In this document: positions 23,488-59,045 of the stretch, piece after piece
Layout: each line of letters starts with the position of its first letter
Position numbering within the stretch: position 1 is the first letter of the stretch
DNA from: a virus
DNA length: 64,000 bases
Reading direction: 5' to 3' (one strand)
IMG/VR virus record: IMGVR_UViG_3300047476_000972
Coordinates: 13,562-77,561 of that record
Program-made: the position numbers and the translations under genes
The notes under the pieces: generated by a model
Told to the model about the DNA's origin: nothing
Database searches by the model: none
Seen by the model: only the letters and a program-made list of their open reading frames with translations

Positions 23488-23939
23488 TAGACACGCCTGG
23501 ATGGTACGAAGAAGCTGAATGCTCTAAGCCAATATATAGAGATGTAATTAAGAACTTCTTTCTGAACAAGTCGGCTCAGCAGTTGCCTGCGCTGAAGATA
23601 TGCGATGCATGTCCAGTAAAAAGAGATTGCCTTAAGATGGCCCTAGAAAATAAAGAAATATGGGGCATATGGGGAGGGCTCACTCCTAAAAAGATCCGTA
23701 GAACTCTATCTGTGAATTGGCAAGGCCAAGAGATGCGTCACAAGCGCCCACCACTATGTCCTGCCTGTGAGGCAAAGACTGACAAACTTATAACTAAGAC
23801 AGTCAATCGCCCTAACGGTGGGCGCTGGGCAACCATGAAGCTAGTCGAGTGTGTGGAGTGTAATTTCTCATGGCAGAGCAGAACAAGTGCTAATGCTGTA
23901 GAGGCGTTTCACTTGCTAAAGACTAAGAAGAAGTCCTAG
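23484..23939 (+). CDS. whiB: WhiB-family transcription factor with C-terminal Zn-ribbon extension
   Basis: C...CDACPVKRDC and GIWGG; extra CPAC...CVEC. Confidence 0.85.
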   Translation: MIDTPGWYEEAECSKPIYRDVIKNFFLNKSAQQLPALKICDACPVKRDCLKMALENKEIWGIWGGLTPKKIRRTLSVNWQGQEMRHKRPPLCPACEAKTDKLITKTVNRPNGGRWATMKLVECVECNFSWQSRTSANAVEAFHLLKTKKKS

Positions 23940-25014
23940 CTGCAGCCTTGTAATACTCTAGATTATTTTTCAAACGTTCGTTGTTTGGGTCGTGAAGTAC
24001 GGCAGCTTCTCCATAAACCAAAGCTTCTTGGTACATCCCTAGGTTGTATGCAGCTATAGAAGCTAAGTCGTGCGGTAAGGCTCCCCAAGCAAAGTCCTCG
24101 CATAGATAGTCCAATGGCTTCTCTTTGATCTTGAGAGCGTCTAGCGAAACCTCGTAGCAATCAGCCCAGTTCTTTTCTTCGTACAAAAATTGCGCGTACT
24201 CTACGAGGGCTTCCCTGCGTCCGGGGGCTTCATCTATAGCTGAAACTAGCCATGTAAAGCGATTCTCTGGCTCGCACTTAGCTAGGTAGCGCATTGATGC
24301 GGCTCGCTCTGGCCTCCAAGTTGCGCTAGGAATTGATAGGTGCCTTTTGAATTCTTTAGCAGCTTCTTCGTACTGAGCGTAGAAGAAGAGCTCCCTAGCG
24401 TAATAAAAAGCACTTCTATCGTCGTTTGGTGTTTCTTTTACAGCGAGTTTTAGTAGTGGAAGGTACTGCCCACGGCTCTTAGTAGGGTCAGCTCTGTGGT
24501 GCAGAATTACCTCTGGGATAGTTACTCGACTCTCTGGTCGATCCATTTCCCAGTAAAGAGTCTCGTGGCAAGGTTGACGCCAGCGGTATCCAAAGCGTCC
24601 ATGAATTTTGTCAGCATAGAACTGAATGCCTGGAGTTACTCCATCTTCTTTCCAGTTCCAGATGTAGTCATAGGCGATGCGATCAATGTTTCCGTTGGTT
24701 TCTTGCCAAGCCTTATCTATTGCATCTGCCCAGCCTGGTTGTAGATACTCGTCTAAATCGATTGATAGGCAGATATCAATATCGGCTGGAATCAAACTTA
24801 AGGCCGTATTTCTAGGAACATCAAAACGCCACGGCTTCTGAGTAATCTCATAAACAACTGCTCCGCGCTCTCGTAGACGTTCTACGGTGCCGTCTGTTGA
24901 TCCGGTGTCGCAGACTAAAACAAGATCTGCTCCCTCGTTTGCATCCATAAATTTATCTACATGTTTGATCTCGTTTAGTGCGATGGCATAGACACAAGTT
25001 CTTACTTTACGCAT
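23923..25014 (-). CDS. GT2 glycosyltransferase with TPR repeats (SgtA/SunS-like protein glycosyltransferase)
   Basis: VYAIALNE, DTGSTDGT, PWRFD..RN, DLDE (DxD), HE; C-terminal TPR helices (FYYARE, P.RRE, DPNNERL..N). Confidence 0.85.
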   Translation of the reverse strand: MRKVRTCVYAIALNEIKHVDKFMDANEGADLVLVCDTGSTDGTVERLRERGAVVYEITQKPWRFDVPRNTALSLIPADIDICLSIDLDEYLQPGWADAIDKAWQETNGNIDRIAYDYIWNWKEDGVTPGIQFYADKIHGRFGYRWRQPCHETLYWEMDRPESRVTIPEVILHHRADPTKSRGQYLPLLKLAVKETPNDDRSAFYYARELFFYAQYEEAAKEFKRHLSIPSATWRPERAASMRYLAKCEPENRFTWLVSAIDEAPGRREALVEYAQFLYEEKNWADCYEVSLDALKIKEKPLDYLCEDFAWGALPHDLASIAAYNLGMYQEALVYGEAAVLHDPNNERLKNNLEYYKAAARTSS

Positions 25015-26053
25015 TTGATCCCTCGTACCACTTCATGTTTTCAATGAGTCTTTGATTATTCGGATCTAATTCTAATGCTAGCTTCCCGTGTTTAAGTGCC
25101 AGCTCGATTTTCCCGCAGTAGTATGCGGAAAGGGCGACAATGTCATGAGGACCGTACCCCCATGCTTCTTTAGAGTAAGTGAATCCGTCACGACGTTCAG
25201 CAACATCTAAACACTCTAATGCAAGCCTAAGAGCTATCGAGTGATCTCCTTCAGACGAGTAAAGTTTTGCCATATCGTATAAAGTTTCTCGCTCTTTACT
25301 CTGTCCATAGGCTCTCCACAGCTGTACCATTGCAGTATCTGTATCCCCTTTTGCTTGGTAGTTGCGTGCAATGTTTCTTGCAATATAGGATTTAACAACA
25401 GGGCCATCGGAGCACTTATCATAGCTCTCGGAGCGCCAAAATATAGCTTGATCTAGATTTCCTATAGCCTCGTAATCATTTGCTAAGAAATACCTAGTGC
25501 GCCAATTTTCATCGCCCTCGCTAATCTTCTTGTGTAAGAGGTTCAAATAGCTGCGTCTACTCTTTGTAGTGTCTTGCCATTCGTCAAGAAAAATTTGATC
25601 ATTCCACAGGGTTTTCTCTGAAATAGACCAAGATAAGGTCTCGTGAACTGCACCCACCCATTTGCAATTATGACGAGAGTGGATCTTAGAATGCCATTGC
25701 CAAGAACCGCCATTGTGTCGGTATCGGTGATTCAAAATAGTGGCGTCTAGTTCCCATGAATCCTCTAGATGTTTTCGCCAGCCTGGCAACAACACTTCAT
25801 CAATGTCTAGCGAGACTGCAATGTCTACATCTGAGGGTAGCAAATTTAGAGCTGCATTTTTAGCGTCATCGAATCGCCAAGGAGCTATTTTGATTTTGTA
25901 AACCTGAATTCCTAGCGACTCTGCAAGGACACTAGTTCCGTCTGTAGACCCCGTGTCTGCCAGCAAAATATAATCTGCTTCTTTCGCAGACTCTGCCCAG
26001 CGGGAAATGAATTGCTCCTCGTTTAGAGCTATAGCGTAGACCGCTACCTTCAT
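25007..26053 (-). CDS. GT2 glycosyltransferase with TPR repeats (paralog)
   Basis: Same motifs (VYAIALNE, DTGSTDGT, PWRFD, DIDE, VHE) and a TPR tail. Confidence 0.85.
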   Translation of the reverse strand: MKVAVYAIALNEEQFISRWAESAKEADYILLADTGSTDGTSVLAESLGIQVYKIKIAPWRFDDAKNAALNLLPSDVDIAVSLDIDEVLLPGWRKHLEDSWELDATILNHRYRHNGGSWQWHSKIHSRHNCKWVGAVHETLSWSISEKTLWNDQIFLDEWQDTTKSRRSYLNLLHKKISEGDENWRTRYFLANDYEAIGNLDQAIFWRSESYDKCSDGPVVKSYIARNIARNYQAKGDTDTAMVQLWRAYGQSKERETLYDMAKLYSSEGDHSIALRLALECLDVAERRDGFTYSKEAWGYGPHDIVALSAYYCGKIELALKHGKLALELDPNNQRLIENMKWYEGSNA

Positions 26054-33539: not shown

Positions 33540-37134
<3,595 letters not shown>

Positions 37135-37135
<1 letters not shown>

Positions 37136-37497
37136 TATTTAGTTACCTCCGCGCGAACAGTTAGGTTTCCTTGAAGGAGGTTGGTAACTGTTCCAGTTGA
37201 TGTTTCTTCTAGCTCTAGATCGTATACATAGATACCTGGAGTCATAGCAGCTGTCTGAGACGGGGTTATTAATATGATGACAGAACCTATTGACGCATTT
37301 ATAGAGAGGCCGTTTGATGGAGTAGTTAGCTCCAGAATAGTGTTGAGATCGGGGGTCTTCTCGCGAATATCCATGCGAGCTGTGTATCCAGTTAAAGGAA
37401 CTACATTTTTTGCAGAACTTTTAAGCGCTATAGATCGATGCAAGGTAGCACCTTGATCTACTACTATATCATAAACATTAGTGGTTGCGCAATACAC
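37135..37497 (-). CDS. BppU-like fibre anchor/adaptor protein (module B)
   Basis: YDI..DQGAT, L.GYTARM.IR, L.LTT, G.YVYDLEL and L.QG...V..EVT; paralog of 50309-50671. Confidence 0.7.
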
Positions 37498-37553: not shown

Positions 37554-38153
37554 CTAGTTGGTTAGCTTTTTAATCCAGAATGCTGGGGCCATATACTTTA
37601 CCCCTGCTAGTACAGGAATGGACTCGTGGTAGTACGGAGCTACTGAGGGAAAGATCACTACACTACCAGCTTCTGGCTTAATCCTCACCCCGAACTCTGT
37701 AAAGTTAAGCTCTCCACCCTCCACGTCATCATTTAGATATAAAACTGCAGACATTAGTGGCTCTATAGCAGGGTCTCCGTAGTAGTCCACGTGGGGTCCC
37801 ATAGCTGAGCCTGTAGCATATTTTGAAATACTAAGAGGCAGTGGGTCTTTGTACTCGATGTAATTTTTACGGGCATAGTCTTGTCCGACTTTTGTTAGTG
37901 CATCTTTTATCGTACTATAGACTGCCCGAGCAGCCTCGGAGCTGGTACTTAGCTTGGATTCATCTGTGGACTTCTTTTGGCCAAAAACATACTTTGGCCC
38001 CTCTCCCGAGGCTACCCACTCGCTCCATTTTTCAATGGCATCATTGTCAGTAAGATCTTCGTCAGATGTTTCGATTAAAGATACTAGGTCGCTAGGGGCG
38101 TCTACTACATTTTTATAGTAGTAAATCTTGTCTGCAAAAATTTCTGGTTGCAT
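37554..38153 (-). CDS. 2OG-Fe(II) oxygenase (prolyl-4-hydroxylase-like)
   Basis: H-V-D, YLNDD.EGGEL, HES and KY motifs; ATG at 38153 overlaps the upstream stop. Confidence 0.85.
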   Translation of the reverse strand: MQPEIFADKIYYYKNVVDAPSDLVSLIETSDEDLTDNDAIEKWSEWVASGEGPKYVFGQKKSTDESKLSTSSEAARAVYSTIKDALTKVGQDYARKNYIEYKDPLPLSISKYATGSAMGPHVDYYGDPAIEPLMSAVLYLNDDVEGGELNFTEFGVRIKPEAGSVVIFPSVAPYYHESIPVLAGVKYMAPAFWIKKLTN

Positions 38154-38887
38154 TAGGCGAACTTGTTGCCCTTTTCCCACTCTACTTTTTGCTCCGCCTG
38201 AGCCTTACGGACTTCTCGAATCTCTTCTTCCCAAGCTGCCTTCTTTTCATCAGAGTAGACTGCGTCAGCGAAGTCCCAGAAGGAAACCATGGTGTAGCGA
38301 GTGCCTTTTAAAATTTCTTGAACTCCGTGAATATTCTCTACTCCACCTGGGAAACAGATGTATGAATAGGCGCGTGGCTTAAATTCGATATCGTGCTCTG
38401 GGAAATACAACTCCCCGCCCTCGTAGTCATCATTCAAGTACAGAATCCCGACATACTTATTAATTTCAAATGCATTAGGGTGACCATCAAAGTCGGAGTT
38501 GTCCGAGTGCGGGGCCGCGAATCCGCCTACATCCCATTTCTGAGCGTGGGAAGTATTTGCCACTACTTCGCGATCAAAGACTAGTTCAATAGCTTCTTGA
38601 AACTTCTGTCGAAGTAACTCGAAGAATCGTGGTGGTAGAGAGTACTCTGCCAGTTTAGGATCGTCTGGGTGGATTCCCATTCCAGAAGAGCCATAGAAAG
38701 CGATGTCGCCCCACTGGGAAGAGTATGACTCAATGTAATCAATGATGCTCTTAGCTGCGTCTGGCGTCACAAAATTAGGAATCTCTATGATTCTGTTCTG
38801 CGGAATACCGAGCTCGCCTTTAACAGTAGGCTCGTCTTTGTAGATGATAAAAGTGTCTTTATCAATAGTTTCAAGATATAGAGACAT
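38153..38887 (-). CDS. 2OG-Fe(II) oxygenase (P4H-like)
   Basis: H-S-D, YLNDDYEGGEL, HGV and RY motifs. Confidence 0.85.
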   Translation of the reverse strand: MSLYLETIDKDTFIIYKDEPTVKGELGIPQNRIIEIPNFVTPDAAKSIIDYIESYSSQWGDIAFYGSSGMGIHPDDPKLAEYSLPPRFFELLRQKFQEAIELVFDREVVANTSHAQKWDVGGFAAPHSDNSDFDGHPNAFEINKYVGILYLNDDYEGGELYFPEHDIEFKPRAYSYICFPGGVENIHGVQEILKGTRYTMVSFWDFADAVYSDEKKAAWEEEIREVRKAQAEQKVEWEKGNKFA

Positions 38888-39660
38888 TAGTGGTCAATAC
38901 CTTTCAGGTTATAGCGTCCAGAGTTTCGCTCTACGCGTTCGCGTTCTTTTTCCATTTCGGCCCAGACTTCGTGGCCATATTTTGCTTGACCATCGCGCCA
39001 CTCCTGAGTGCCTTCGAATTCATATTGCCAGAAAGATCGTACGAAGTACTTCTGACCAGCGGTAGTTTTATTAACGCCATGGTAGTAAGGAGCTCGAGAA
39101 GGGAACACTAGAACGTCTCCCGCCTGAGGCTTGTGCATGAAGAACTCTACGTCTGTCCCTTCTTCGTTGAGGACCTTAAAACAGATCTCTCCGCCCTCAT
39201 AGTCTCCATTTAGATACATGGTGCATGTCATAACTGGCTTGTCTCCGGGAGCGTCTGCGCGCTCCTGTTGAAAGTCTGTGTGATAGAACATGCCCACGTT
39301 AGTGTCTGCTCCGCCATCTGTTTTGTACATACAGATAGCAGGGGCGGTGAATTTCCAGTTGGGAATGCTGTCAGTGAAGTAAGTATCATAATAATGCTTG
39401 GTAGCTTCATAAAACGCTTGAAGAATTTTTAAAGCAGGATCAGTTAGATCCTTATCACCAGCTAGTAAGGCCTGAGACCACTCTTCTTCATTTGGAAATG
39501 ACGAAAATGTGTGATTCCTGACCTTAACAGTGGTCAAATCTCCGAAAGTGAACCACTGACGCCACTCACTATTGTTCTTGTGGAACTCGATGATCTCTTC
39601 TGGGTTTTCATAGAGACCTCGATACACAATCACATTTGGGTAGAGTTCCAGAACTTCCAT
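38887..39660 (-). CDS. 2OG-Fe(II) oxygenase (P4H-like)
   Basis: H-T-D, YLNGDYEGGEI, HGV and KY motifs; ATG at 39660 overlaps the upstream stop. Confidence 0.85.
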   Translation of the reverse strand: MEVLELYPNVIVYRGLYENPEEIIEFHKNNSEWRQWFTFGDLTTVKVRNHTFSSFPNEEEWSQALLAGDKDLTDPALKILQAFYEATKHYYDTYFTDSIPNWKFTAPAICMYKTDGGADTNVGMFYHTDFQQERADAPGDKPVMTCTMYLNGDYEGGEICFKVLNEEGTDVEFFMHKPQAGDVLVFPSRAPYYHGVNKTTAGQKYFVRSFWQYEFEGTQEWRDGQAKYGHEVWAEMEKERERVERNSGRYNLKGIDH

Positions 39661-40343
39661 TAGATACCGCACTGGCTTTCATGAGAAAGAATAGTCCAGA
39701 AGAATGGCACTGTGTAACGGATTCCAGACGTAATCTGAGTTACGCCGTGAATATACTCCATATCGCCTGGGAAGAAGTAGGCAGCTCCAGCCTTTGGCTT
39801 GAATTGGATTCCCTGATTAGGAAAGTACAACTCCCCGCCTTCATAGTCATCATTGATGTAGAAAAGACCAGCAATGTCGTAGTACGGGAAGTCGTTTGGC
39901 TTTCCGCGATCTTCTCCCTCGTGCAACTCTTTATCTGCGTGAGGCATCTGTAGCTGGCCTGGCAACCAACGAACTAGTGCTGGAGATGTAGGAACCGCAT
40001 CTACTTTAAAGAACGCGTCTACTTCTCTCTTTAGTCGTTCAACCATTCCGTTGATAACTTCTGGAATCTTAGGGTCTACGGCACGAATAGTGTCATAGGT
40101 AGCTACTCGATCTTTCCAATACTCCGAGTCATAAATGACAGTGCCCTCTTCGTTATAGTGGGTTTCTGTGACATCCCATGAGGTGTTTGATCGGATAAAC
40201 GCATTGAGAGTCTGTAGCTCCTCGGGCGTCATAAAATCTTCTCTGGCCTGAATGTTGGAAGGGCTGTTTCCAAAGAATCCAGAAGGTGTTATGGACATTC
40301 TGTTTTCTAGCCTAGAGTTTGAGTAGTCTTCTAAAGGTTCCAT
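39660..40343 (-). CDS. 2OG-Fe(II) oxygenase (P4H-like), leaderless
   Basis: H-A-D, YINDDYEGGEL, HGV and RY motifs; TGA-TAGGAT 6 nt upstream of the ATG. Confidence 0.85.
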   Translation of the reverse strand: MEPLEDYSNSRLENRMSITPSGFFGNSPSNIQAREDFMTPEELQTLNAFIRSNTSWDVTETHYNEEGTVIYDSEYWKDRVATYDTIRAVDPKIPEVINGMVERLKREVDAFFKVDAVPTSPALVRWLPGQLQMPHADKELHEGEDRGKPNDFPYYDIAGLFYINDDYEGGELYFPNQGIQFKPKAGAAYFFPGDMEYIHGVTQITSGIRYTVPFFWTILSHESQCGI

Positions 40344-40355
40344 GCATCTATCCTA

Positions 40356-41087
40356 TCATTCATAAACTCTTCGAGTCCAAACTTCCTTCTGGTAGACTCC
40401 CCCGTCTGGAACACGATACTTCTTGCTATTAGCGTTGTTGTCCATGGCCATTTTCATGTATGGGACCTTAGCATCAACTTCCGATTCCCAGTCCTCGCGC
40501 TTGAAGGGCAACATCTGAGCGTAAGGAGTACCTGCTGGCAGAACTCCAGTCCAACCTTTAACAATAAAAAATGGCATAGTCCCTGGAAGATTGACTTTGT
40601 CGTTGTCAATGATCCCGCTTGTTGTTAAAAATGGTAGCTCAAAGCGGTTAAATGGTTGAGTGTATAAGACGCTATACCCGTCTGGTACCTGCACTGCCCA
40701 GTCCGACCACCATGCAAAATGAACTTCATGATACCCCATCGGGGCTTTGAACTGAGGCATCGGCGGCCTGTTTTGAATGAAATCTTTATTTTGAGGATCT
40801 AATACTTTGGCTTTAATTACGCCATTGTCTTCATAGAACTCGATGTCACAAGGGGTGCGGTAGACATATCCGGTGCCCATGATGTCAAAAACAGCAGGGC
40901 AAGCCTTCCACGTTGGAATTTTTCCTCCGACATAAGGATCTTTCCAGTGTTCGCCATCTGGCTTGAGAGCAAAACGATCAGCTTTGCGATACCATTCAGG
41001 AATTGTCTTGATGGTCGGCTTTGGGGTTGACGGACTGTCTTCCGTTAGCCATGGGCGATTTTTGATGAATTTAATCAGTTGTTTCAA
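40356..41087 (-). CDS. DUF6065-like protein
   Basis: P.P...IPEWY, T.K.CP...D...GY...P.D, SGIID.D and AGTP..Q..PFKR motifs. Confidence 0.55.
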   Translation of the reverse strand: MKQLIKFIKNRPWLTEDSPSTPKPTIKTIPEWYRKADRFALKPDGEHWKDPYVGGKIPTWKACPAVFDIMGTGYVYRTPCDIEFYEDNGVIKAKVLDPQNKDFIQNRPPMPQFKAPMGYHEVHFAWWSDWAVQVPDGYSVLYTQPFNRFELPFLTTSGIIDNDKVNLPGTMPFFIVKGWTGVLPAGTPYAQMLPFKREDWESEVDAKVPYMKMAMDNNANSKKYRVPDGGVYQKEVWTRRVYE

Positions 41088-41805
41088 TTGTCATTCCTGT
41101 CACTGGGCATTTAATGGTTTTAAGTTTGATGTTCTTAGATTCATGTTGCCCCATAGAGGAGCCGTCATAGTTGACTGCATCACGATACATCTTTGACCAA
41201 TCGCCTTTAGAGTTTTTTGCTTCGGCAGCTTCGCCATACTTTCTCAGCTCTTCCCAGTATTCGTTTGGAAGACTGCCCTCTGTTATCTCCATCTGATAGC
41301 TCGACTGCAGATCGCCAATTGATATGGGGATCACAGCTGCTACGGGAGTGCCAGCGGGGATAAAGATTTCTTTGTTTGGCTCTGTAATTTTTATAGCAAG
41401 TGGCAGCTCGCCCTTATAAAAAGAGGTGCTTAGGATAGTGGTAAATGTCTGAGTCCCTCTAATAAATTGGTTCGGCACTGGCATTGTCAGCATTGATACG
41501 TCGACGTCAGTTGAAAAAACTAGCCCAGTCTTAAAACTAAGCGTACCGTGAGCCCTACCAGTGTAGACAAACTCTTCGCCCTCTAGAATTTTGACGTGGT
41601 GTTCTTCAGAGTTTTCTACGCCATCCCAGATCGCTCGGACATCTTTATTAAAGGAAATACCCCAGCCGAGACCATTAGTCAGTGTCATAGGAAAGCACAT
41701 ATACGCGTGCTTCCCTGAAGTATTGTCCATCCAGTCTCGGGTAGCACGTAGCTGCTCGATGGTCGCAGCTTTTTCGTGTAACCTTTGTACTCGGATAGTT
41801 TTCAT
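41071..41805 (-). CDS. DUF6065 family protein
   Basis: RDWMD.T...HAY.CFP....N..GW and AGTP.A...P motifs. Confidence 0.7.
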   Translation of the reverse strand: MKTIRVQRLHEKAATIEQLRATRDWMDNTSGKHAYMCFPMTLTNGLGWGISFNKDVRAIWDGVENSEEHHVKILEGEEFVYTGRAHGTLSFKTGLVFSTDVDVSMLTMPVPNQFIRGTQTFTTILSTSFYKGELPLAIKITEPNKEIFIPAGTPVAAVIPISIGDLQSSYQMEITEGSLPNEYWEELRKYGEAAEAKNSKGDWSKMYRDAVNYDGSSMGQHESKNIKLKTIKCPVTGMTIETTD

Positions 41806-42554
41806 TAGTCGCCTGTCTCGACGATGAACTGGGGGCGGTGGAACTTTTCTGAATAATCAAGCATGGTAACCATCGAGTGCTTAGTTCCAGATAGAACCGG
41901 CATTGCTCGATGAGGGTACATGTAATTAGACGGGAAGATGTATAGGTCTCCTGCAGTGGGCTTCACTTTAACATTCTGCAACCTAAAGTACAGCTCTCCA
42001 CCTTCGTAGTCATCGTTAGGGAAGGCCACTAATGACGTGACGCAGTTGTAGGAGAACCCGTGATCATGGTGCTCTTGGAAGTGCTGCCCTGGACCGTACT
42101 TAATAAAGTTAGTTGCCTCCCAGTAGCGCAGTTCTCCGATGTTGTACATCTTGGTGTAGTGCTTTACCGCTTGGAGCTGTCGGTGATGGGTCTCTTCCCA
42201 AAGGGCTACCAGCTTCTGAGCAGCTTCGGAAGGGTCGTGCTGAATGTCTGTTTTCTTGTACTTAAAGTCAACGCAGTCGCGGTACTCTGGCATTTTTACG
42301 CCATAACCAACTAGAGCTTCCTCGTAGTGGTATTGGTTGCTTGGGTCAAGAAGTACGTCTTCTAACCGCTGAATCACCTGTAGCTCGGTTGGAATTACGT
42401 TTCTGTAAACCCAGATGCCAGACATGGGGACGACTTCTTCCGCGGTAGTCCAAGTCTTTTCTTCAATTTCATACCACTTAGTAAGACGAACATTGTGATC
42501 GTTGATGTCTTGCATCATCTTTTCTGTTGGCTTTCCTACATGATTGTTCTGCAT
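41805..42554 (-). CDS. 2OG-Fe(II) oxygenase (P4H-like)
   Basis: H-H-D, NDDYEGGEL, HRA and K motifs. Confidence 0.85.
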   Translation of the reverse strand: MQNNHVGKPTEKMMQDINDHNVRLTKWYEIEEKTWTTAEEVVPMSGIWVYRNVIPTELQVIQRLEDVLLDPSNQYHYEEALVGYGVKMPEYRDCVDFKYKKTDIQHDPSEAAQKLVALWEETHHRQLQAVKHYTKMYNIGELRYWEATNFIKYGPGQHFQEHHDHGFSYNCVTSLVAFPNDDYEGGELYFRLQNVKVKPTAGDLYIFPSNYMYPHRAMPVLSGTKHSMVTMLDYSEKFHRPQFIVETGD

Positions 42555-42561
42555 GATTGTC

Positions 42562-43305
42562 CTAATACTTCAACTTGTATTCTTGAATAATTGGGGATAC
42601 CTTGTGGTTCACGTCTCCGCGATCGTTGTAGTCAGTCATAATTACAACGGCATATTTTGTTCCAGAGATCATGTCTTGGGAGGCGTGCTCATAGATGTAG
42701 GTTGATGGGAAAACAACTACGTCTCCGGCCTTTGGCTTAATAGATAGGCCGTTCATTCGAGGGAACCAAATCTCTCCGCCCTCATAGTCGTCGTTTAGAT
42801 ATACAACTACTGAGACAGTGCACACGTAGGTTGGGCCATGATCAGCGTGAACCTTAAAGTGAGTTCCTGATCCTTCATACTTTACAAAGTTAAAAGCCTC
42901 GTATGAGCAGATCCCCACTCCCCAGTAGCGGCCGTAGTCATCCACACACTGGCGAACTGCTTGGAACACGGCTTCGTGTACATCGTAGAGTTCGGCATTG
43001 TGCTCGTTACGAGGACCTAGGCCAGTGGAGTTGATTTTAAAGTCTTGTGCATTTCTCGCATTGACGTCTACGTCAGCAGAAGAAGTAACCTTTGCTCCTT
43101 GCCAACGATACCTGCCAGTGCCATCTAAATTTTTTTCTAGGGTGTCAATGTAGTGCTTACCTTGTTCTTTGGTAATTGCACCACTATAGACGTTTACGCC
43201 TAGGGCTGGATTTGCTACGGTAATAGCTGGATTAGTGGTAGCCTGTCGATCAGGCATACGATGCGCTGAGGTCTCTGACCTGTCTTTAGTAAACCAATCA
43301 TTCAT
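42562..43305 (-). CDS. 2OG-Fe(II) oxygenase (P4H-like), probably leaderless from ATG 43305
   Basis: H-A-D, YLNDDYEGGEI, HAS and KY motifs; TATACT 6 nt upstream of the second ATG. Confidence 0.85.
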   Translation of the reverse strand: MNDWFTKDRSETSAHRMPDRQATTNPAITVANPALGVNVYSGAITKEQGKHYIDTLEKNLDGTGRYRWQGAKVTSSADVDVNARNAQDFKINSTGLGPRNEHNAELYDVHEAVFQAVRQCVDDYGRYWGVGICSYEAFNFVKYEGSGTHFKVHADHGPTYVCTVSVVVYLNDDYEGGEIWFPRMNGLSIKPKAGDVVVFPSTYIYEHASQDMISGTKYAVVIMTDYNDRGDVNHKVSPIIQEYKLKY

Positions 43306-43337
43306 GCATTTAGTATACATACGAATATGTAAAAATG

Positions 43338-44114
43338 CTAGATTATCGGGACATATCCTTCAAGATTTTTTGGGAAGTCTGCTGGCGGGCAGTAGCACTC
43401 TGGGCACCCTATACACTCTTTGTTTTTAGGGGGTAGCCCCTCAAATGAGATAGGCTTTCCGGTGGCTTCGTAGAACCGTATCTCGGCATCATGCGTATAC
43501 TCTTTTGCTAATTTCCTAAAAGAGTCTTTGTCAACTGTATTGCTGTCTAGGTTGTAGGACCAATCTTCAGGCTTAGAATATATGGCAAAAAAGACGATCA
43601 TATAATCTTCGTCATTAGTTGATGGATATGGTGGCCTACCGTGTATATGCTGTTGGCCATTAAAAAAGACAGCTGAATTTTCTTCTTCGGAGTATACGTG
43701 GCCTTCTATTTCTACTCCCCAGTCCGAGATTCCGTGCTTTACAACGCATAGATCCATCAAATACTGGCTAGAAGTGTCATCTAGATGTCTCCAAAGATAT
43801 GGGACTATGTCTTCTTGTTTTTGATATCTAGCTGCAAAGATAAAGTTTTGTTTTAGATCAGGCTCTCCCCAGCTCTCCCTTGCCAAAGCCAGCAACTCTT
43901 CTCCCACAAAATGAGGGATCTCGGGGTTACAAGTCCATCTCCCTGAGATTGTGTGGTACTTAGCTGAAGAGCCTGGTCCCCACTCTTGAGCCATAAGTAC
44001 TTCTTTTATGGCATTGAAGCTTTTCTCAGAGAGCAGGTTGCTCTTCTTAAATGGTTTATACGGGGTAGGCAAAGGCCACTTTATGTTTGGACTGTTGTCT
44101 GCATAAAGTGGCAC
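43338..44114 (-). CDS. Divergent 2OG-Fe(II) oxygenase-like protein with Cys-rich tail
   Basis: ARY...H-L-D and F.GQQHIHGRP DSBH motifs; C-terminal CIGCPECYC. Confidence 0.6.
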   Translation of the reverse strand: MPLYADNSPNIKWPLPTPYKPFKKSNLLSEKSFNAIKEVLMAQEWGPGSSAKYHTISGRWTCNPEIPHFVGEELLALARESWGEPDLKQNFIFAARYQKQEDIVPYLWRHLDDTSSQYLMDLCVVKHGISDWGVEIEGHVYSEEENSAVFFNGQQHIHGRPPYPSTNDEDYMIVFFAIYSKPEDWSYNLDSNTVDKDSFRKLAKEYTHDAEIRFYEATGKPISFEGLPPKNKECIGCPECYCPPADFPKNLEGYVPII

Positions 44115-44139
44115 TTTGCTACTACCCTATCCCTCTACT

Positions 44140-44955
44140 TTAGAGGATTCGCATGAACCTCGGTGGGAAGAATGGGAATGATGGTGGGAAGAACGGGAAG
44201 AACGGGAAGAACGGGAAGTAAGGGAAGAACGGGAAGAATGGGAAGTAAGGGAAATATGGTGGGAAGAACGGGAAGAACGGGAAGAACGGGAAGTAAGGGA
44301 AGAATGGCGGAAAGAATGGGAAATATGGCGGGAAGAACGGCGGGGTTGTATTGCTAGTGGAGTAGTCAGACCACGCAGAAGTTCCGTTTGCGTTGGTTAC
44401 GCGAACTCTATACTGCTGTGAGGTATCTGCCTCTTGAGCTACGTTTGCAGATGTTCCTGTTGTGTTGCCTGACTTGGAGTCGGTGCTCTCCCAGTAGTAT
44501 GTGCTGAGGGTTGCACCGCCAGTAGCTGGTGCTGACCAAGAAACATAGTCTGTCTGATCGCCAGAAAAGTTCTGAACTGTTGGTGCATTTGGAGTGGCAG
44601 GAACTGTAGTGATAGTTACAGAGCCAGATTCGGTTGAAAGTGCAGAAGTTCCAGCAGCATTTGTTGCTGAAACTTTAAAGGTGTATGAAGCAGCTGAATC
44701 TAGGCCACCAACAACAATCGGAGAAGATCCGCCGGTTAGGTTTGTGGCAGTGGTGTCTTCTATTCCGCTTTTATATGCAATTACAGTAAATGAAGTCGCA
44801 GAAGGAGAGTCGGCTGGGAGCTCGAAAGAAACGCTAGCCGCACCGTCATTGAAGGCGCGGTTAGTTCCGACGTTACTACCCGAAACATTTATTGGGGCTT
44901 TTGGCTCCAAAAAGTCGTTAGACGCCTGAGACTTTCTACCAGCTCTCTTGCTCAT
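44140..44955 (-). CDS. Two-FN3-domain virion protein with a 63-aa Pro/Phe/Tyr repeat C-terminus
   Basis: FN3 motifs (SPIVVGGL..A.SYTFKVSATN; VSWSAPATGG; YRVRVTNANG); tail PPFFPPYFPFF...PPRFMRIL. Confidence 0.85.
   Translation of the reverse strand: MSKRAGRKSQASNDFLEPKAPINVSGSNVGTNRAFNDGAASVSFELPADSPSATSFTVIAYKSGIEDTTATNLTGGSSPIVVGGLDSAASYTFKVSATNAAGTSALSTESGSVTITTVPATPNAPTVQNFSGDQTDYVSWSAPATGGATLSTYYWESTDSKSGNTTGTSANVAQEADTSQQYRVRVTNANGTSAWSDYSTSNTTPPFFPPYFPFFPPFFPYFPFFPFFPFFPPYFPYFPFFPFFPYFPFFPFFPFFPPSFPFFPPRFMRIL
44155..44343 (-). repeat. Tandem 9/12-nt coding repeat, 19 units of (P/PP)-[F/Y/S/R]-F
   Basis: Plus strand shows repeated GGGAAGAAC / GGGAAGTAA / GGGAAATATGG units, all multiples of 3. 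Confidence 0.9.
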
Positions 44956-44969
44956 TTAATTCTCTCCTA

Positions 44970-47888
44970 TTAGGCGGTCAAGTCGCCGTATACCAGCCAT
45001 GTGTTAGAGGCACGCTTTAATAGTGTAGCAGATGACCAGCGGGTCCTTAGCTTTAGACCCGGGGTAGCGTTTACAGTAACTCCGACCGCGCCCTCAATTG
45101 TGACTTGACCTGTATTGGTCTGAATAATGTCCAGAGTGGTTCCAACTGGATAGTCCACGGTCGAGTCTGCAGGAATTGTTAGTGTGGTTGCCGAGGTCTT
45201 GCTGATCTCTATGATGGTATCACGCTCATTGAGATTAGACAGAGTATATGAGTCAGTCTTAGCTGAGATGGTCGTGATAGATGGAACACCTTGCTTAGTC
45301 TGAGCTCCGTCAGTGAATGCAACTCCAGATGCTCCTACGGTGACAGTTCCTGTGAATGTAGGATCTGCAGTCGGGGCCTTGGCGTCAATCTGAGTCTGAA
45401 TTGCTGAAGTAACACCATTCAAGTACTGAAGTTCTGTGTTTGACACATCTCCAATAGTTGCCGATTCAGCGGTGAGCGAGTCAACCGCGATCGAAGCTAG
45501 AGCGAAGCTAGAGTGGGCAGTGTTGATAAAGACTGATTCGTCTGGCTCTGGTGTGTAGCCGTCGAAAATCTTAAATACTCCATCACTAGCATCCCTAAAC
45601 ATACCAGCGTGAGCATATCCAGCACCATTTACTGTGTCGTAACGACCAGCAGCCCAACCTAGGTCAGGGTTGAAGTGGACCTTGCCTCGCGCGGTTCCAC
45701 CGCTAGTGTAGGTATCGGTTACGGTGCTAGTTACTGTGAAGGTAGTACTGGTTACAGCCGTAATCTCTAGGCCGTCACCAGAAATGTTGAATGAAGATGG
45801 AGTCACGCCTGTTACAGTTACATAGTCTCCGGCCTCGTAACCGTGGGCAGCTTGAGTTGTATATACAACTTCGGTACCGCTACCAACAGCATTGGTGATG
45901 GTGCTCATGCCCGCTTGGTTGAGGTAGATCATGTTGTCGCGTAGCTTTAGGTCAGCTGCACTAACGGTTGTAGTAGTTCCTTGAACTACTAGGTTTCCAG
46001 TAATGGTTAGACCTGGAATCTCTACTGACCCAGTGAAAGTTGCCCCAGAAAGCCCAGCCTTTGCATCTAGCTGAGTCTGAATGGCACTAGTCACGCCGTT
46101 TACGTAACCAATCTCCGTTGAAGAAACATCGCCAATTGAGGTAGTCGATGGAAGTGAAATTGTTCCACTGAATGTTGCATCTGCAGTCGGTGCCTTTAGA
46201 TCCAAAGCACTCTGAGTATCGGTGGAAATTGGCTTGTCCGCATCGGCGGTGTTGTCTACGTTTCCAAGGCCAACCATGCCCTTAGTAATTCCAGAAACAG
46301 TGCCGGTGAAAGTAGGGCTTTCAGTTGGAGCTTTGTCGTTCAGCTGAGTCTGGATTGCGCTAGTTACGCCATCTACATAGTTTAGTTCTGTAGTAGTGGC
46401 AGTAATTCCGTCTAGAGTGTTTAGCTCAGAAGTGGAGGCTGTGATACCGCTTAGAGTGTTGAGCTCTGAAGTAGACGCCGTGATGCCGTTCAAAGTATTT
46501 AGCTCTGAGGTGGTCGCGGTAATTCCGTCTAGAGTGTTAATCTCTGCAGCTGTAGCTGTAACGCCATTTAGGATGTTTAGCTCTGCTGTAGTGGAGGTAA
46601 TTCCGTCCAATACGTTAAGCTCTGCGGCCGAAGCCGTAATCCCATCAAGGGTGTTTAGCTCCGCTGTCGTTGCTGTAATACCATCCAAAACATTTAGCTC
46701 TGAGCTCGAAACTGTAATACCGCTCAAGGTGTTTAGCTCAGTAGTTGAGATAACGACTCCATCTAGAACATTTAGTTCAGTGGCGTTAGCTGTAAGACCA
46801 GCGATGTTCAAGATGTCGGCTGCAGTTACAGTTCCAATAGTTGTTGATGATGGTAGCGACACGTTACCAGTAAAGGTAGGACCGTCTAAGTACGCTAGGT
46901 TAGCTGTATCAGAAATACCGTGCACCGAAGTAGTGTCAGAGTTATGGGTAGTAATAGCGGAAGATACGTCAGTTAGATACGCCAAATCTTCAGTATTGGT
47001 GATACCGTGAATATTTGTAGATACGTTGTGATCGGTGATTGCATTATCAGCGTATGTTTCATATGCAGTCGTTAGGCTTGAGGTCAGGGATGCAATCTCA
47101 GATGAGGTTGTTCCTGCGTAGTCAAGAGAAGTCCAGGCTGTTACACCGTTTCCAATCTTAAACTTGCCAGTATTGCTTTCTAGAGCAAATACGTTTGCCG
47201 ATACAACTGGGTTTGTGTTAGTCCAGTTAGTAGAAGTATTGATCTCTAGAGTGGCTTTAGTGCCAATAGAAGTCGTGATGGTCGAAGCAAAGTTCGGGTC
47301 ATCACCTAGTGCAGCAGCCAGCTCGTTCAACGTGTTTAGTGTCGTTGGAGAAGAGTCAATCAGGTTAGCAATTGCAGTGTCAGTGTATGAATTAGCAGCT
47401 GATTCTGCTGAGTCTGCCTTTGACTGAGCACCAGTCTGAGTTTCTAATTCGCTCGTATCTGCGATTCCATGAACGCTTGTAGTGTCTGCGTTGTGGTTAT
47501 ATACAGAGGTGTCTGTGTAATCTTTTACTTCGATTTCTAAAGCATCCACCTTCGACTGAGCGCCAGTCTGGGTCTCGAGAGCAGATGTGTCAGCGATTCC
47601 GTGAACGTTGGTGGTGTCTGAGGCATGGGTTGAAAGATCGCTAGAGGAGGCCTTTGCATCTAGCTGAGTTTGAATAGCAGAGGTAACACCGTCTAGATAG
47701 CCGATCTCGGTATCAGAAACTCCGGTCACTGCACCGACATATGGAAGTGACGTCCACGCTGTTGAACCATTACCTACTTTAACCTTGCCAGTATCGGTCT
47801 CAAATGCGAGCTCGCCTACGGAAAGAGTAGGGTTAGTAGAGGTCCAGTTAGCCGCTGTACCGCGACGTATTTGAATTTTAACTGCCAT
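44970..47888 (-). CDS. Long tail/neck fibre with Mtd-N (hyaluronidase-N)-like domain, 13-aa repeats and C-terminal docking domain
   Basis: IQIRRGTAANWT..NP.L..GE..FETDT...K.G.G.TAW..L.Y (twice); TLNTLNELAAAL; ITATT.ELN.LDG repeats; recurring VTSAIQTQL..KA. Confidence 0.8.
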   Translation of the reverse strand: MAVKIQIRRGTAANWTSTNPTLSVGELAFETDTGKVKVGNGSTAWTSLPYVGAVTGVSDTEIGYLDGVTSAIQTQLDAKASSSDLSTHASDTTNVHGIADTSALETQTGAQSKVDALEIEVKDYTDTSVYNHNADTTSVHGIADTSELETQTGAQSKADSAESAANSYTDTAIANLIDSSPTTLNTLNELAAALGDDPNFASTITTSIGTKATLEINTSTNWTNTNPVVSANVFALESNTGKFKIGNGVTAWTSLDYAGTTSSEIASLTSSLTTAYETYADNAITDHNVSTNIHGITNTEDLAYLTDVSSAITTHNSDTTSVHGISDTANLAYLDGPTFTGNVSLPSSTTIGTVTAADILNIAGLTANATELNVLDGVVISTTELNTLSGITVSSSELNVLDGITATTAELNTLDGITASAAELNVLDGITSTTAELNILNGVTATAAEINTLDGITATTSELNTLNGITASTSELNTLSGITASTSELNTLDGITATTTELNYVDGVTSAIQTQLNDKAPTESPTFTGTVSGITKGMVGLGNVDNTADADKPISTDTQSALDLKAPTADATFSGTISLPSTTSIGDVSSTEIGYVNGVTSAIQTQLDAKAGLSGATFTGSVEIPGLTITGNLVVQGTTTTVSAADLKLRDNMIYLNQAGMSTITNAVGSGTEVVYTTQAAHGYEAGDYVTVTGVTPSSFNISGDGLEITAVTSTTFTVTSTVTDTYTSGGTARGKVHFNPDLGWAAGRYDTVNGAGYAHAGMFRDASDGVFKIFDGYTPEPDESVFINTAHSSFALASIAVDSLTAESATIGDVSNTELQYLNGVTSAIQTQIDAKAPTADPTFTGTVTVGASGVAFTDGAQTKQGVPSITTISAKTDSYTLSNLNERDTIIEISKTSATTLTIPADSTVDYPVGTTLDIIQTNTGQVTIEGAVGVTVNATPGLKLRTRWSSATLLKRASNTWLVYGDLTA
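46340..46800 (-). repeat. About 11 degenerate 39-nt (13-aa) repeats in the fibre shaft
   Basis: ITA(S/T)T(S/A)ELN(T/V/I)L(D/S/N)G units. Confidence 0.85.
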
Positions 47889-51755: not shown

Positions 51756-51989
51756 GTGAGCGTTGACATGTTAGAGCTGACTGACTCAACTATGGAACTT
51801 GATGAAGACGGCAACGAAAAGCTAGCGCACTACGCTGAGTCGGTGTCAGTGACCGAAGGATATGTCTTAGGAACCCCGATTCAAGCCATCTGTGGAAAAA
51901 TTTTTGTACCTTCTCGCGATCCAGAAAAACTTCGTAAGTGCCCGATTTGCGTTGAGATCATGGACGCGTTATTCTATTCAGCGGACTAA
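51756..51989 (+). CDS. DUF3039 family protein (actinobacterial, Zn-binding)
   Basis: HY...V.EG...G.P..A.CGK.FVP.RDP.....CP.C. Confidence 0.75.
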   Translation: MSVDMLELTDSTMELDEDGNEKLAHYAESVSVTEGYVLGTPIQAICGKIFVPSRDPEKLRKCPICVEIMDALFYSAD

Positions 51990-56113: not shown

Positions 56114-56437
56114 ATGTTCTTAGACTCCATTCTTCCAGCAGACTATCCTGATTTTGAAGAGTTTGGGACGGCCCCCTGCGCTGAGAGTGATCCCGATGCT
56201 TTCTTCCCGGAAGACAGGCCTGACGGAAATATGATGCCAAATAGGTTGGCATATCCGATGGAGCGAGAAGCTAAAATCACCTGCCGTGAGTGCCCATACA
56301 AGCTACGCTGTCTAGAATATGCCTTGAAAAACGAGGATCTCCAGGGCATCTGGGGTGGGTTTACTGAGCAGGAACGTCGTAAGCTCCGTCGTGGAGTCCC
56401 TGTCCGCATGAGGATCCCAGAGGCTAAGCACATCTAG
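56114..56437 (+). CDS. whiB: WhiB-family transcription factor
   Basis: CAESDPDAFFPE, CRECPYKLRC and GIWGG.TE.ERR motifs. Confidence 0.9.
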   Translation: MFLDSILPADYPDFEEFGTAPCAESDPDAFFPEDRPDGNMMPNRLAYPMEREAKITCRECPYKLRCLEYALKNEDLQGIWGGFTEQERRKLRRGVPVRMRIPEAKHI

Positions 56438-57375: not shown

Positions 57376-57948
57376 CTAGAGAGCGTAGCTCTTATCTGTG
57401 GTTAGCCACATCGGCATGGTGTATCTATGCTGATCTATCTCTTTGACTTCATGATTTCCGGTGCTTTGAGATGGAAAAACGACTAGATCACCAGCAAATG
57501 GTTTCACTGAATGTCCTAGATCTGTAAAGATTAAGTCGCCCGTAGTACCAAGGGTGTTTAGGTACAGAACCGCACTGTATGTGAAATGCACATTCCTACC
57601 TTCATCGGTGTCGTCATGCATCTGTACATTAGCGCCTGGTAATTGTTTAGCTAGCCAAAAAGAACAAACGTACAGATCCCTAGAATCTTTATATAAGTCT
57701 TTTACGGTTTCGATAGTCTTTGAGAAATAAGATCTAACCAGATCTTTGATTTCAGGGATTGTTGAGTCTAGTTCAAGAGATGACATGGCATGAGCGTTGT
57801 CTTTCCCGAACTGAAGCACTGGGCGCTTTCCGTTGTTCCCTATAAAAAATAGATCTGGTTTAGTCTCTAAAAGATGATCGTTGTAGTTTTTAAATAGCTC
57901 TATGTCTTCCGCAGAGATAAAGTTACTTACTACTTTTATCTGATCCAT
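57376..57948 (-). CDS. 2OG-Fe(II) oxygenase (P4H-like)
   Basis: H-D-D, SAVLYLN, HEV and RY motifs. Confidence 0.8.
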   Translation of the reverse strand: MDQIKVVSNFISAEDIELFKNYNDHLLETKPDLFFIGNNGKRPVLQFGKDNAHAMSSLELDSTIPEIKDLVRSYFSKTIETVKDLYKDSRDLYVCSFWLAKQLPGANVQMHDDTDEGRNVHFTYSAVLYLNTLGTTGDLIFTDLGHSVKPFAGDLVVFPSQSTGNHEVKEIDQHRYTMPMWLTTDKSYAL

Positions 57949-58616: not shown

Positions 58617-59045
58617 ATGGTAGATATAAATGTAGAAGTATCCGAGTTGAGCTTACTCCCTGGCTATGCTAATATCGGGGACGCGGGTGCTGATTTGCGA
58701 GCTGCTGATTCTTACGTAGTCCTCCCCCGAGAACGAGTACTTATCAAAACTGGTCTTAAGATCGAGCTCCCTATTGGCTATGTTGCCTTAGTACACCCTA
58801 GAAGTGGTTTGGCTCTTAAACACGGTATTACGGTTCTTAATACTCCGGGAACGATTGACTCTGGGTATAGGGGTGAAGTTGGCGTAATTCTCTATAACAC
58901 CTCCGATGAACCTTTTCTTATTGATAAGGGTGATCGAATCGCTCAGATGGTAATCCAAAAGTATGAGACTGCAGTATTCTCTGTAGTTGAGTCACTAGAT
59001 GATACCGAACGCGGTGCTGGTGGCTTCGGATCAACTGGAGTATAA
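58617..59045 (+). CDS. dut: dUTPase (trimeric)
   Basis: AGADL, PRSGLA, GTIDSGYRGE, RIAQ and RGAGGFGSTG motifs. Confidence 0.95.
   Translation: MVDINVEVSELSLLPGYANIGDAGADLRAADSYVVLPRERVLIKTGLKIELPIGYVALVHPRSGLALKHGITVLNTPGTIDSGYRGEVGVILYNTSDEPFLIDKGDRIAQMVIQKYETAVFSVVESLDDTERGAGGFGSTGV

Follow-up and report, generated by a model that had tools for sequence, protein, structure and literature searches.

The window analyzed here is a stretch of 64,000 nucleotides (positions 13,562 to 77,561) of the IMG/VR virus record IMGVR_UViG_3300047476_000972, which is 77.5 kb long and has a CheckV completeness of 45%. Positions 37554 to 44955 of the window hold a conserved cassette that lies distally in a tail-fiber module of freshwater phages. 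The cassette opens with a gene for a protein with fibronectin type III (FN3) folds and a proline-aromatic repeat tail, which we call F, and continues on the same strand with nine closely packed enzyme genes, with spacings of -28 to +25 nt: seven for oxygenases (X and OG1 to OG6) and two for DUF6065-like proteins (D and P). A preliminary description of this locus, made from the sequence alone, had proposed that the enzymes form a dedicated, RiPP-like (resembling clusters for ribosomally synthesized and posttranslationally modified peptides) set that hydroxylates the tail of F on the virion.

F (44140..44955, minus strand) is 271 amino acids (aa) long and consists of an N terminus with the motif NDFLxP, an FN3 domain, an FN3-like segment, and the repeat tail. 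The NDFLxP motif is present in 58/58 distinct F homologs; a Pfam search with the N-terminal 34 residues gave no match, and nothing resembling a signal peptide was seen at the N terminus. The FN3 domain (residues 37 to 109; 44629..44847, minus strand) matches PF00041 with an E value of 1.7e-6 (28.5 bits versus a cut-off of 25). The preliminary description counted two FN3 domains, and of these the first is secure, while the second (residues ~113 to 204; 44344..44619, minus strand) is better called FN3-like: residues 110 to 205 searched alone gave no Pfam match, and the segment resembles the first FN3 by BLASTP at an E value of 5e-4, with the F-G strand motif aligned. The tail (44155..44343, minus strand) contains exactly the 19 units of (P or PP)-[F/Y/S/R]-F over 63 aa that had been described, followed by MRIL, and the DNA beneath it is a 9/18-nt tandem array. 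Contigs from other freshwater metagenomes carry repeat indels between window positions 44221 and 44269 that sum to multiples of three, and the length of the tail therefore varies in frame. The window tail contains no glycine at all and thus lacks the glycine at every third residue that marks a collagen-like helix.

The protein collection contains 544 relatives of F at similar length, nearly all of which have FN3 and an aromatic low-complexity tail. Because this architecture recurs in hundreds of homologs, a chance origin is excluded. A megablast search with the region and tblastn searches with F and D gave no match in 50,697 phage records, a set in which near relatives are perhaps not included. 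Fusion of F to fiber domains was considered and rejected: the longer homologs are F-family proteins of ~490 to 540 aa, mostly with a Hint-like C terminus, and the other longer matches are cellular multi-FN3 proteins without aromatic repeats. In many F homologs (e.g., at loci L026:10001-11254, L029, L038, L039, L075, and L100:5624-6913), and not in the window F, a Hint/intein-like domain directly follows the aromatic repeat. These homologs have Cys or Ser at the repeat junction, and many of the proteins terminate in ...HN; PF14890 is precomputed for several F homologs, and PF13403 matches one at an E value of 6e-4, below the cut-off. Such features suggest that the Hint-like domain may perform self-cleavage or ligation exactly at the end of the F tail. 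Other F homologs terminate in Cys-rich knots or acidic tails.

Six of the cassette open reading frames (ORFs) pass the PF13640 threshold (30 to 48 bits versus a cut-off of 27). H158, D160, and H212 are invariant in an alignment of all seven PF13640 paralogs of the window, and each of the seven has a K or R ~10 residues past the distal His. OG1 to OG6 are thus predicted to be 2-oxoglutarate (2OG)-Fe(II) oxygenases of the prolyl 4-hydroxylase (P4H) type. OG1 (42562..43320, minus strand; PF13640, E = 9e-12), OG2 (41805..42554, minus strand; E = 3e-12), and OG3 (39660..40343, minus strand; also PF13640) are core members with true orthologs at other loci. The OG1 orthologs are 44 to 68% identical and are present in all loci whose F has a Pro-Phe-Phe (PFF) type tail, and the OG2 orthologs are 57 to 69% identical; the nearest solved relative of both is the Bacillus anthracis P4H (E = 1e-5 and 1e-3, respectively). 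OG3 is the most conserved, with orthologs that are 59 to 77% identical and 375 relatives in IMG/VR, and among solved proteins, prolyl 3-hydroxylase 1 and PiuC are nearest to it (E = 1e-4). The solved proteins nearest to the core oxygenases are thus peptidyl-prolyl 4- and 3-hydroxylases, at weak E values. OG4 (38887..39672), OG5 (38153..38887), and OG6 (37554..38180), all on the minus strand and all matching PF13640, are variable paralogs; OG4 has counterparts that are ~23 to 45% identical in most other loci, and its orthologs are kept in the closest relatives.

The remaining oxygenase-like protein, X (43338..44114, minus strand), is divergent and is found in the closer relatives only. It has no Pfam match, its hhalign comparison with the oxygenase alignment is weak (E = 0.1), and the protein atlas gave leads only. 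The invariant residues of the X family are H110-x-D112...H158-x-R160. An AlphaFold2 (AF2) model of X with a mean confidence (pLDDT) of 78 has the prolyl hydroxylase of Paramecium bursaria chlorella virus 1 (PBCV-1) and PHD2 as its best Foldseek matches (E = 1e-6); every top match is a 2OG oxygenase, and there are 400 matches at an E value of ≤0.001. Based on this fold and motif, X is predicted to be a 2OG oxygenase with a double-stranded beta-helix fold. The earlier count of seven oxygenases with an HxD...H motif, six of them P4H-like, agrees with these results.

D (41071..41805, minus strand) is a DUF6065 protein that matches PF19541 with an E value of 1.4e-27 (97 bits versus a cut-off of 26.6). 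P (40356..41087, minus strand) has no Pfam match, and both proteins belong to PHROG 7084 (E = 5e-34 for P and 3e-9 for D). In a profile comparison by hhalign, D matches P at an E value of 4e-4, and D is without the conserved Asp/Gln motifs of P; from these comparisons P appears to be a distant paralog of D, in line with the two DUF6065-like genes originally noted. The AF2 model of P has a pLDDT of 92, and its top matches by both Foldseek and VIA-align are all dUTPase or dCTP deaminase. By VIA-align, the top 22 all belong to this superfamily, with Z scores of 5.7 to 9.3, and the next match scores 4.6. Relative to the superfamily, P has ~100 extra residues. Its invariant polar residues (K61, C63, D68, S139, D161, D163, Q191, and R197) suggest the location of a ligand-binding or active site. 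The phage encodes a canonical dUTPase of its own (58617-59045), and in an hhalign profile alignment with it (E = 0.01), P lines up at motifs III (IDxD) and IV (AQ); phosphate-binding motifs II and V of dUTPases have no recognizable match in P, and with the P profile as the query, no PDB sequence was matched at E values up to 10. Judged by the model of P, the DUF6065-like proteins have a dUTPase-like fold and are not hydroxylases.

The fold of P raises the possibility that the cluster acts on nucleotides or DNA, with P and D as nucleotide enzymes of the dUTPase superfamily and the oxygenases oxidizing bases or nucleotides. P appears to retain the Asp of motif III and the Gln of motif IV. The sole cultured-virus source of P homologs, all of them distant, is haloarchaeal tailed viruses (gene 40 of Halovirus HSTV-2, locus L081, and 48 other records), and in HSTV-2, the one record inspected, the homolog adjoins thymidylate synthase and DNA polymerase genes. 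P also adjoins a ribonucleotide reductase (RNR) gene in one class of related loci (those with Gly-Ala-Phe tails, described below), and OG3 has a faint Tet_JBP match (E = 0.007, below the cut-off). However, the oxygenases belong to PF13640, which is of the protein hydroxylase type, and not to AlkB or TET/JBP; the phage encodes a canonical dUTPase elsewhere; and P is without recognizable phosphate-binding motifs. The window cluster is also sandwiched between fiber modules on the late strand, and action on nucleotides leaves its co-variation with tail type unexplained. We consider this explanation very improbable.

The module is widespread among IMG/VR freshwater phage contigs. With F as the query, we retrieved 80 IMG/VR loci, which were later dereplicated. 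In these 80 loci a one-strand order is kept, fiber > F > OG1 > OG2 > D > P > OG3, with a variant in which P and D are exchanged (F > OG1 > P > OG2 > D > OG3). OG1 to OG3 are true orthologs throughout (44 to 77% identical), and the later oxygenases are variable paralogs. Every distinct PFF-tailed F with at least 3 kb of downstream sequence (42/42) is followed by P/D and 3 to 10 oxygenases, which bears out the co-occurrence proposed in the preliminary description. In the reverse direction, with OG3 as the query, a PFF-tailed F is present at every locus that extends far enough upstream (tblastn seemed to miss F in 11 cases, which on inspection by eye either have F or are too short); no occurrence of the cluster independent of a PF-repeat gene was seen among these loci.

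Which enzymes accompany F varies with the chemistry of its tail. Tails of the Pro-free type (Gly-Ala-Phe)n, or (GAF)n, have only P adjacent and no adjacent oxygenases, and mostly have a Hint-like domain after the tail (examples are L010:2503-4017, L031, L034, and L045:9989-11134). These tails have Gly at every third residue and a weak Pfam Collagen match (E = 9e-4), and might form a collagen-like triple helix without proline. Short TPFGF tails are accompanied by two P paralogs, two oxygenases, and one short-chain dehydrogenase/reductase. FSFTPY tails are accompanied by D, P, a gene of the PF05118 Asp/Asn beta-hydroxylase family (E = 5e-16), and a weak sulfotransferase match, and their loci contain no PF13640 genes; in the FSFTPY cassette at L055:11109-13915, genes for DUF6171, PF05118, and a weakly sulfotransferase-like protein lie between D and P.

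Cassettes appear to be exchanged between phages whose neighboring RNR genes are closely similar. The class II RNR gene downstream is 84 to 99% identical among loci with entirely different cassettes, and in the RNR tree the cassette types are interspersed, with a PFF locus pairing with a GAF locus at a support of 0.997. Because of this, deep phylogeny alone does not explain the co-variation of tail and enzymes. In the window and its closest relatives the same cassette lies in another backbone and is followed by a second fiber module instead of RNR.

At ~15 loci, some of which are overlapping pieces of one contig, X and OG1 are separated by a gene of the PF11397 N-acetylglucosamine (GlcNAc)-transferase family (E = 1e-21 to 1e-24). 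PF11397 is the family of Gnt1, which glycosylates the hydroxyproline of Skp1. The loci include relatives whose F is 78 to 81% identical to the window F (examples of PF11397 genes are L110:5989-6984, L112:1095-2120, L149:1114-2118, L003:7130-8107, and L004:11797-12750). The transferase is absent from the 77.5-kb record of the window phage. The proposal that the tail carries hydroxyproline, possibly glycosylated, fits the co-variation of tail and enzymes and, for some relatives, the PF11397 gene.

Based on the gene order, the co-variation with tail type, and the families of the enzymes, our best reading is that OG1 to OG3 and the accessory paralogs, joined in relatives by the GlcNAc-transferase, hydroxylate the Pro-aromatic tail of a fiber-associated F and decorate it further. 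We give this reading an even chance of being correct. Three of its elements, namely, F as the substrate, hydroxyproline as the modification, and the presence of F on the virion, are ones that we infer, the last solely from gene position. Several points weigh against the reading. Adjacency is partly due to linkage, because all of the loci derive from related phages. P has the fold of a nucleotide enzyme, and the neighbors of its homolog in HSTV-2 are genes of nucleotide metabolism and replication; P adjoins F whatever the tail type, with few exceptions, and is the most constant partner of F, though its ancestry points to nucleotides. Other points of the same kind concern where else the oxygenase, P/D, and collagen-like genes occur, and these are the basis of two further explanations.

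The first of these treats the oxygenases, D, and P as members of a general accessory pool that have other targets (host translation, other host proteins, or cell-surface or small molecules are envisaged) and are linked to F only by block inheritance of a hypervariable region. PFF-type genomes have 1 or 2 oxygenases away from F, and the window has a seventh PF13640 gene (57376-57948, minus strand), which adjoins the canonical dUTPase gene (58617-59045, plus strand). (GAF)n-type genomes (99% complete) have ~6 oxygenases each by hidden Markov model, or 4 to 5 by Pfam, and a second P/D homolog at least 50 kb from F. In these genomes two oxygenases and a P/D homolog form a second cluster (L161:14237-19968; L160:17495-19666 with L163:1-3163), near which ORFs resemble, by eye, a carbamoyltransferase and sulfotransferases. 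Both families therefore also have other targets, and the word "dedicated," used in the preliminary description for the enzymes at F, was too strong. In addition, longer tails do not go with more oxygenases among PFF-type loci (rho = 0.08), and PHROG 61 also contains cyanophage oxygenases, cyanophages being the nearest phages in the database. Against a general pool, orthologs of OG1 to OG3 and D were seen only with PFF tails, always right after F, and in at least two backbones. In the two (GAF)n-type genomes checked, the scattered oxygenases share only 25 to 30% identity over their length with OG1 to OG6, the core OG1 to OG3 among them. A general pool also does not account for the shift of enzyme family with tail chemistry or for the presence, inside the cluster in relatives, of a GlcNAc-transferase of a presumably hydroxyproline-glycosylating family. 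We think an accessory pool of this kind rather unlikely, if still a serious contender.

The second is that the hydroxylases act on collagen-like fibers and that F is an unrelated neighbor. Giant viruses have P4H and lysyl hydroxylases that act on collagen-like proteins, which we count in favor of this explanation. In the window, two collagen-like fibers (35618-37135 and 33540-35618, both on the minus strand; PHROG matches) belong to the next module, directly downstream of the cassette. Among related records searched, 9/10 have a collagen-family match (5/5 PFF-type and 4/5 non-PFF records); most of these matches are a ~245-aa collagen-like ORF, which could be an oxygenase substrate. However, (GAF)n-type phages keep the collagen-like gene and yet are without OG1 to OG3, and in PFF-type records this gene lies 11 to 15 kb upstream of F, which itself adjoins the cluster. 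In the window fibers, the triplets are, by eye, mostly G-P-T or G-P-Q, with Pro at position X, whereas collagen P4H uses position Y. Hydroxylation of the collagen-like proteins in place of F is, in our view, improbable.

If the tail of F is the substrate, the pathway might run as follows. F would be made in the cytoplasm, where the prolines of its Pro-Phe-Phe tail would be hydroxylated by the P4H/P3H (prolyl 3-hydroxylase)-like OG1 to OG3, aided by the variable paralogs. In some relatives, glycosylation of this hydroxyproline by the Skp1-type GlcNAc-transferase family enzyme would follow. The tail would thereby become a polyproline-II-like appendage, stiffer and more soluble than before, that is carried with the fiber encoded just upstream, and P could be a tail-specific partner that acts as an enzyme, serves as a trimeric scaffold, or takes part in recognition. 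This scheme departs from the RiPP-like cluster first suggested. We saw no leader-like part, RiPP recognition element (RRE), or protease gene, and the presumed substrate is a folded protein of 271 aa with no division into leader and core; the likeness is limited to a substrate gene accompanied by tailoring genes. The hydroxylation of Phe or Tyr, the catechols and cross-links, and the adhesive role that the preliminary description also envisaged are speculative.

A wider and more speculative reading, which we consider possible but doubtful, is that tailed phages build a hypermodified, aromatic, hydroxyproline-rich polyproline-II appendage at the fiber tip, glycosylated in some lineages, and that the cassettes are interchangeable and are swapped between near-identical phages as determinants of host interaction. 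Each cassette would pair one tail chemistry with its own P4H/P3H-like, AspH-like (Asp/Asn beta-hydroxylase-like), GlcNAc-transferase, and possible sulfotransferase enzymes. The dUTPase-fold protein would be a new peptide-directed partner, and in many lineages the Hint domain would act on the end of the tail by processing or ligating it.

The wider setting of the cassette is a packed minus-strand array that starts at a divergent intergenic region near 50.7 kb and runs through a PHROG-1084 gene, two fiber genes, F, X, OG1, OG2, D, P, OG3, OG4, OG5, and OG6, and then a second PHROG-1084 gene and the two collagen-like fibers. The tail-fiber protein directly upstream of F (44970..47888, minus strand; PHROG tail-fiber matches) has a C-terminal W-x-x-[YFV]-GDL-xx motif that is kept in 66/66 readable loci. 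At the downstream edge of the cassette, the second PHROG-1084 gene (37135..37497, minus strand) opens the next fiber module. A promoter and terminator scan of 32 to 51.5 kb gave no signal above the shuffled expectation inside the block, and we count this, with the tight spacing, as putative operon context for the cassette. Parts of F, OG3, and OG4 are matched with full identity by contigs of one RNA-library run, for which DNA carry-over is a possible source. Elsewhere in the window (23923-26053, minus strand) there are two tandem genes that join a family 2 glycosyltransferase to tetratricopeptide repeats (GT2-TPR). Their TPR parts have faint, below-cut-off matches to the peptide-substrate-binding TPR of P4H (E = 6e-4 and 0.08), and these proteins could be glycosyltransferases that recognize Pro-rich helices.

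The window phage has siphovirus-type tail genes, a PolA-type polymerase, a primase-helicase, and an RNR. It also has two whiB-family genes (23502-23693 and 56168-56386, plus strand) and a DUF3039 gene (51807-51971); among control genomes, the whiB and DUF3039 families were matched only in Corynebacterium. The sequence runs that contain the window stretch are freshwater metagenomes from several studies. Based on the two whiB genes, DUF3039, and the freshwater origin of the runs, the host is probably a freshwater actinobacterium.

The constant pairing of the Pro-Phe repeat tail with prolyl-hydroxylase-like genes suggests a new system for the chemical modification of a phage particle protein. Our searches of the literature on DUF6065, phage hydroxyproline, and actinophage oxygenases did not turn up any account of such a module. 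To our knowledge, enzymatic hydroxylation of a bacteriophage particle protein, with glycosylation in relatives, would be the first of its kind if it is confirmed. DUF6065 would then gain a fold and a context, and posttranslational chemistry would be an added layer in the variation of the structures with which phages contact their hosts.

Several known systems resemble parts of this one. The P4H proteins of PBCV-1 and B. anthracis are likewise small P4H-type 2OG oxygenases with an HxD...H motif, and they are the closest solved folds and sequences. Substrates of the PBCV-1 and bacterial enzymes are repetitive Pro-rich peptides in a polyproline-II conformation. In contrast to these systems, the phage operons have 3 to 10 diverged paralogs each, belong to tailed phages, and include dUTPase-fold partners; Pro-Phe-Phe takes the place of PAPK or GPP as the presumed substrate, and the activity is that predicted from sequence. 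Plant extensins and other hydroxyproline-rich glycoproteins offer a looser analogy, and an analogy only: they too are built on a repetitive, Pro-rich polyproline-II scaffold that contains aromatic residues and is hydroxylated and then O-glycosylated, but the phage system has no Ser-Pro4 motif, no secretory pathway, and no substrate homology.

In the Skp1 pathway, a cytoplasmic P4H is followed by a GlcNAc-transferase that acts on the hydroxyproline, so that the substrate of Gnt1 is hydroxylated Skp1 (PMC3515798). The pathway (PhyA and then Gnt1, in Dictyostelium and Toxoplasma) is similar in that some relatives of the window phage have a PF11397 gene within the cluster. It differs in having a single target proline in a eukaryote, whereas here there are dozens of repeats, a non-eukaryotic host, and a window without the transferase.

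P has the beta-barrel fold of the trimeric dUTPase/dCTP deaminase superfamily and can be aligned with it at the Asp of motif III and the Gln of motif IV, but differs from it in its fiber-module context, its additional residues, and its unrecognizable motifs II and V. The Hint-like domains of the F homologs have the Cys or Ser after the repeat and the ...HN ends of Hint and bacterial intein-like domains, and differ in their position after an aromatic repeat in a protein of a phage fiber module. Finally, phages, above all cyanophages, encode many P4H-type 2OG oxygenases without a known substrate. The cyanophage 2OG-Fe(II) oxygenases belong to the same Pfam family and PHROG and occur in multiple copies per genome. 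The tblastn search with F was empty in the cultured-phage records, cyanophages included, whereas in the loci described here a candidate substrate gene is coupled, both physically and evolutionarily, to a defined trio of oxygenases, which makes the question of the substrate testable.

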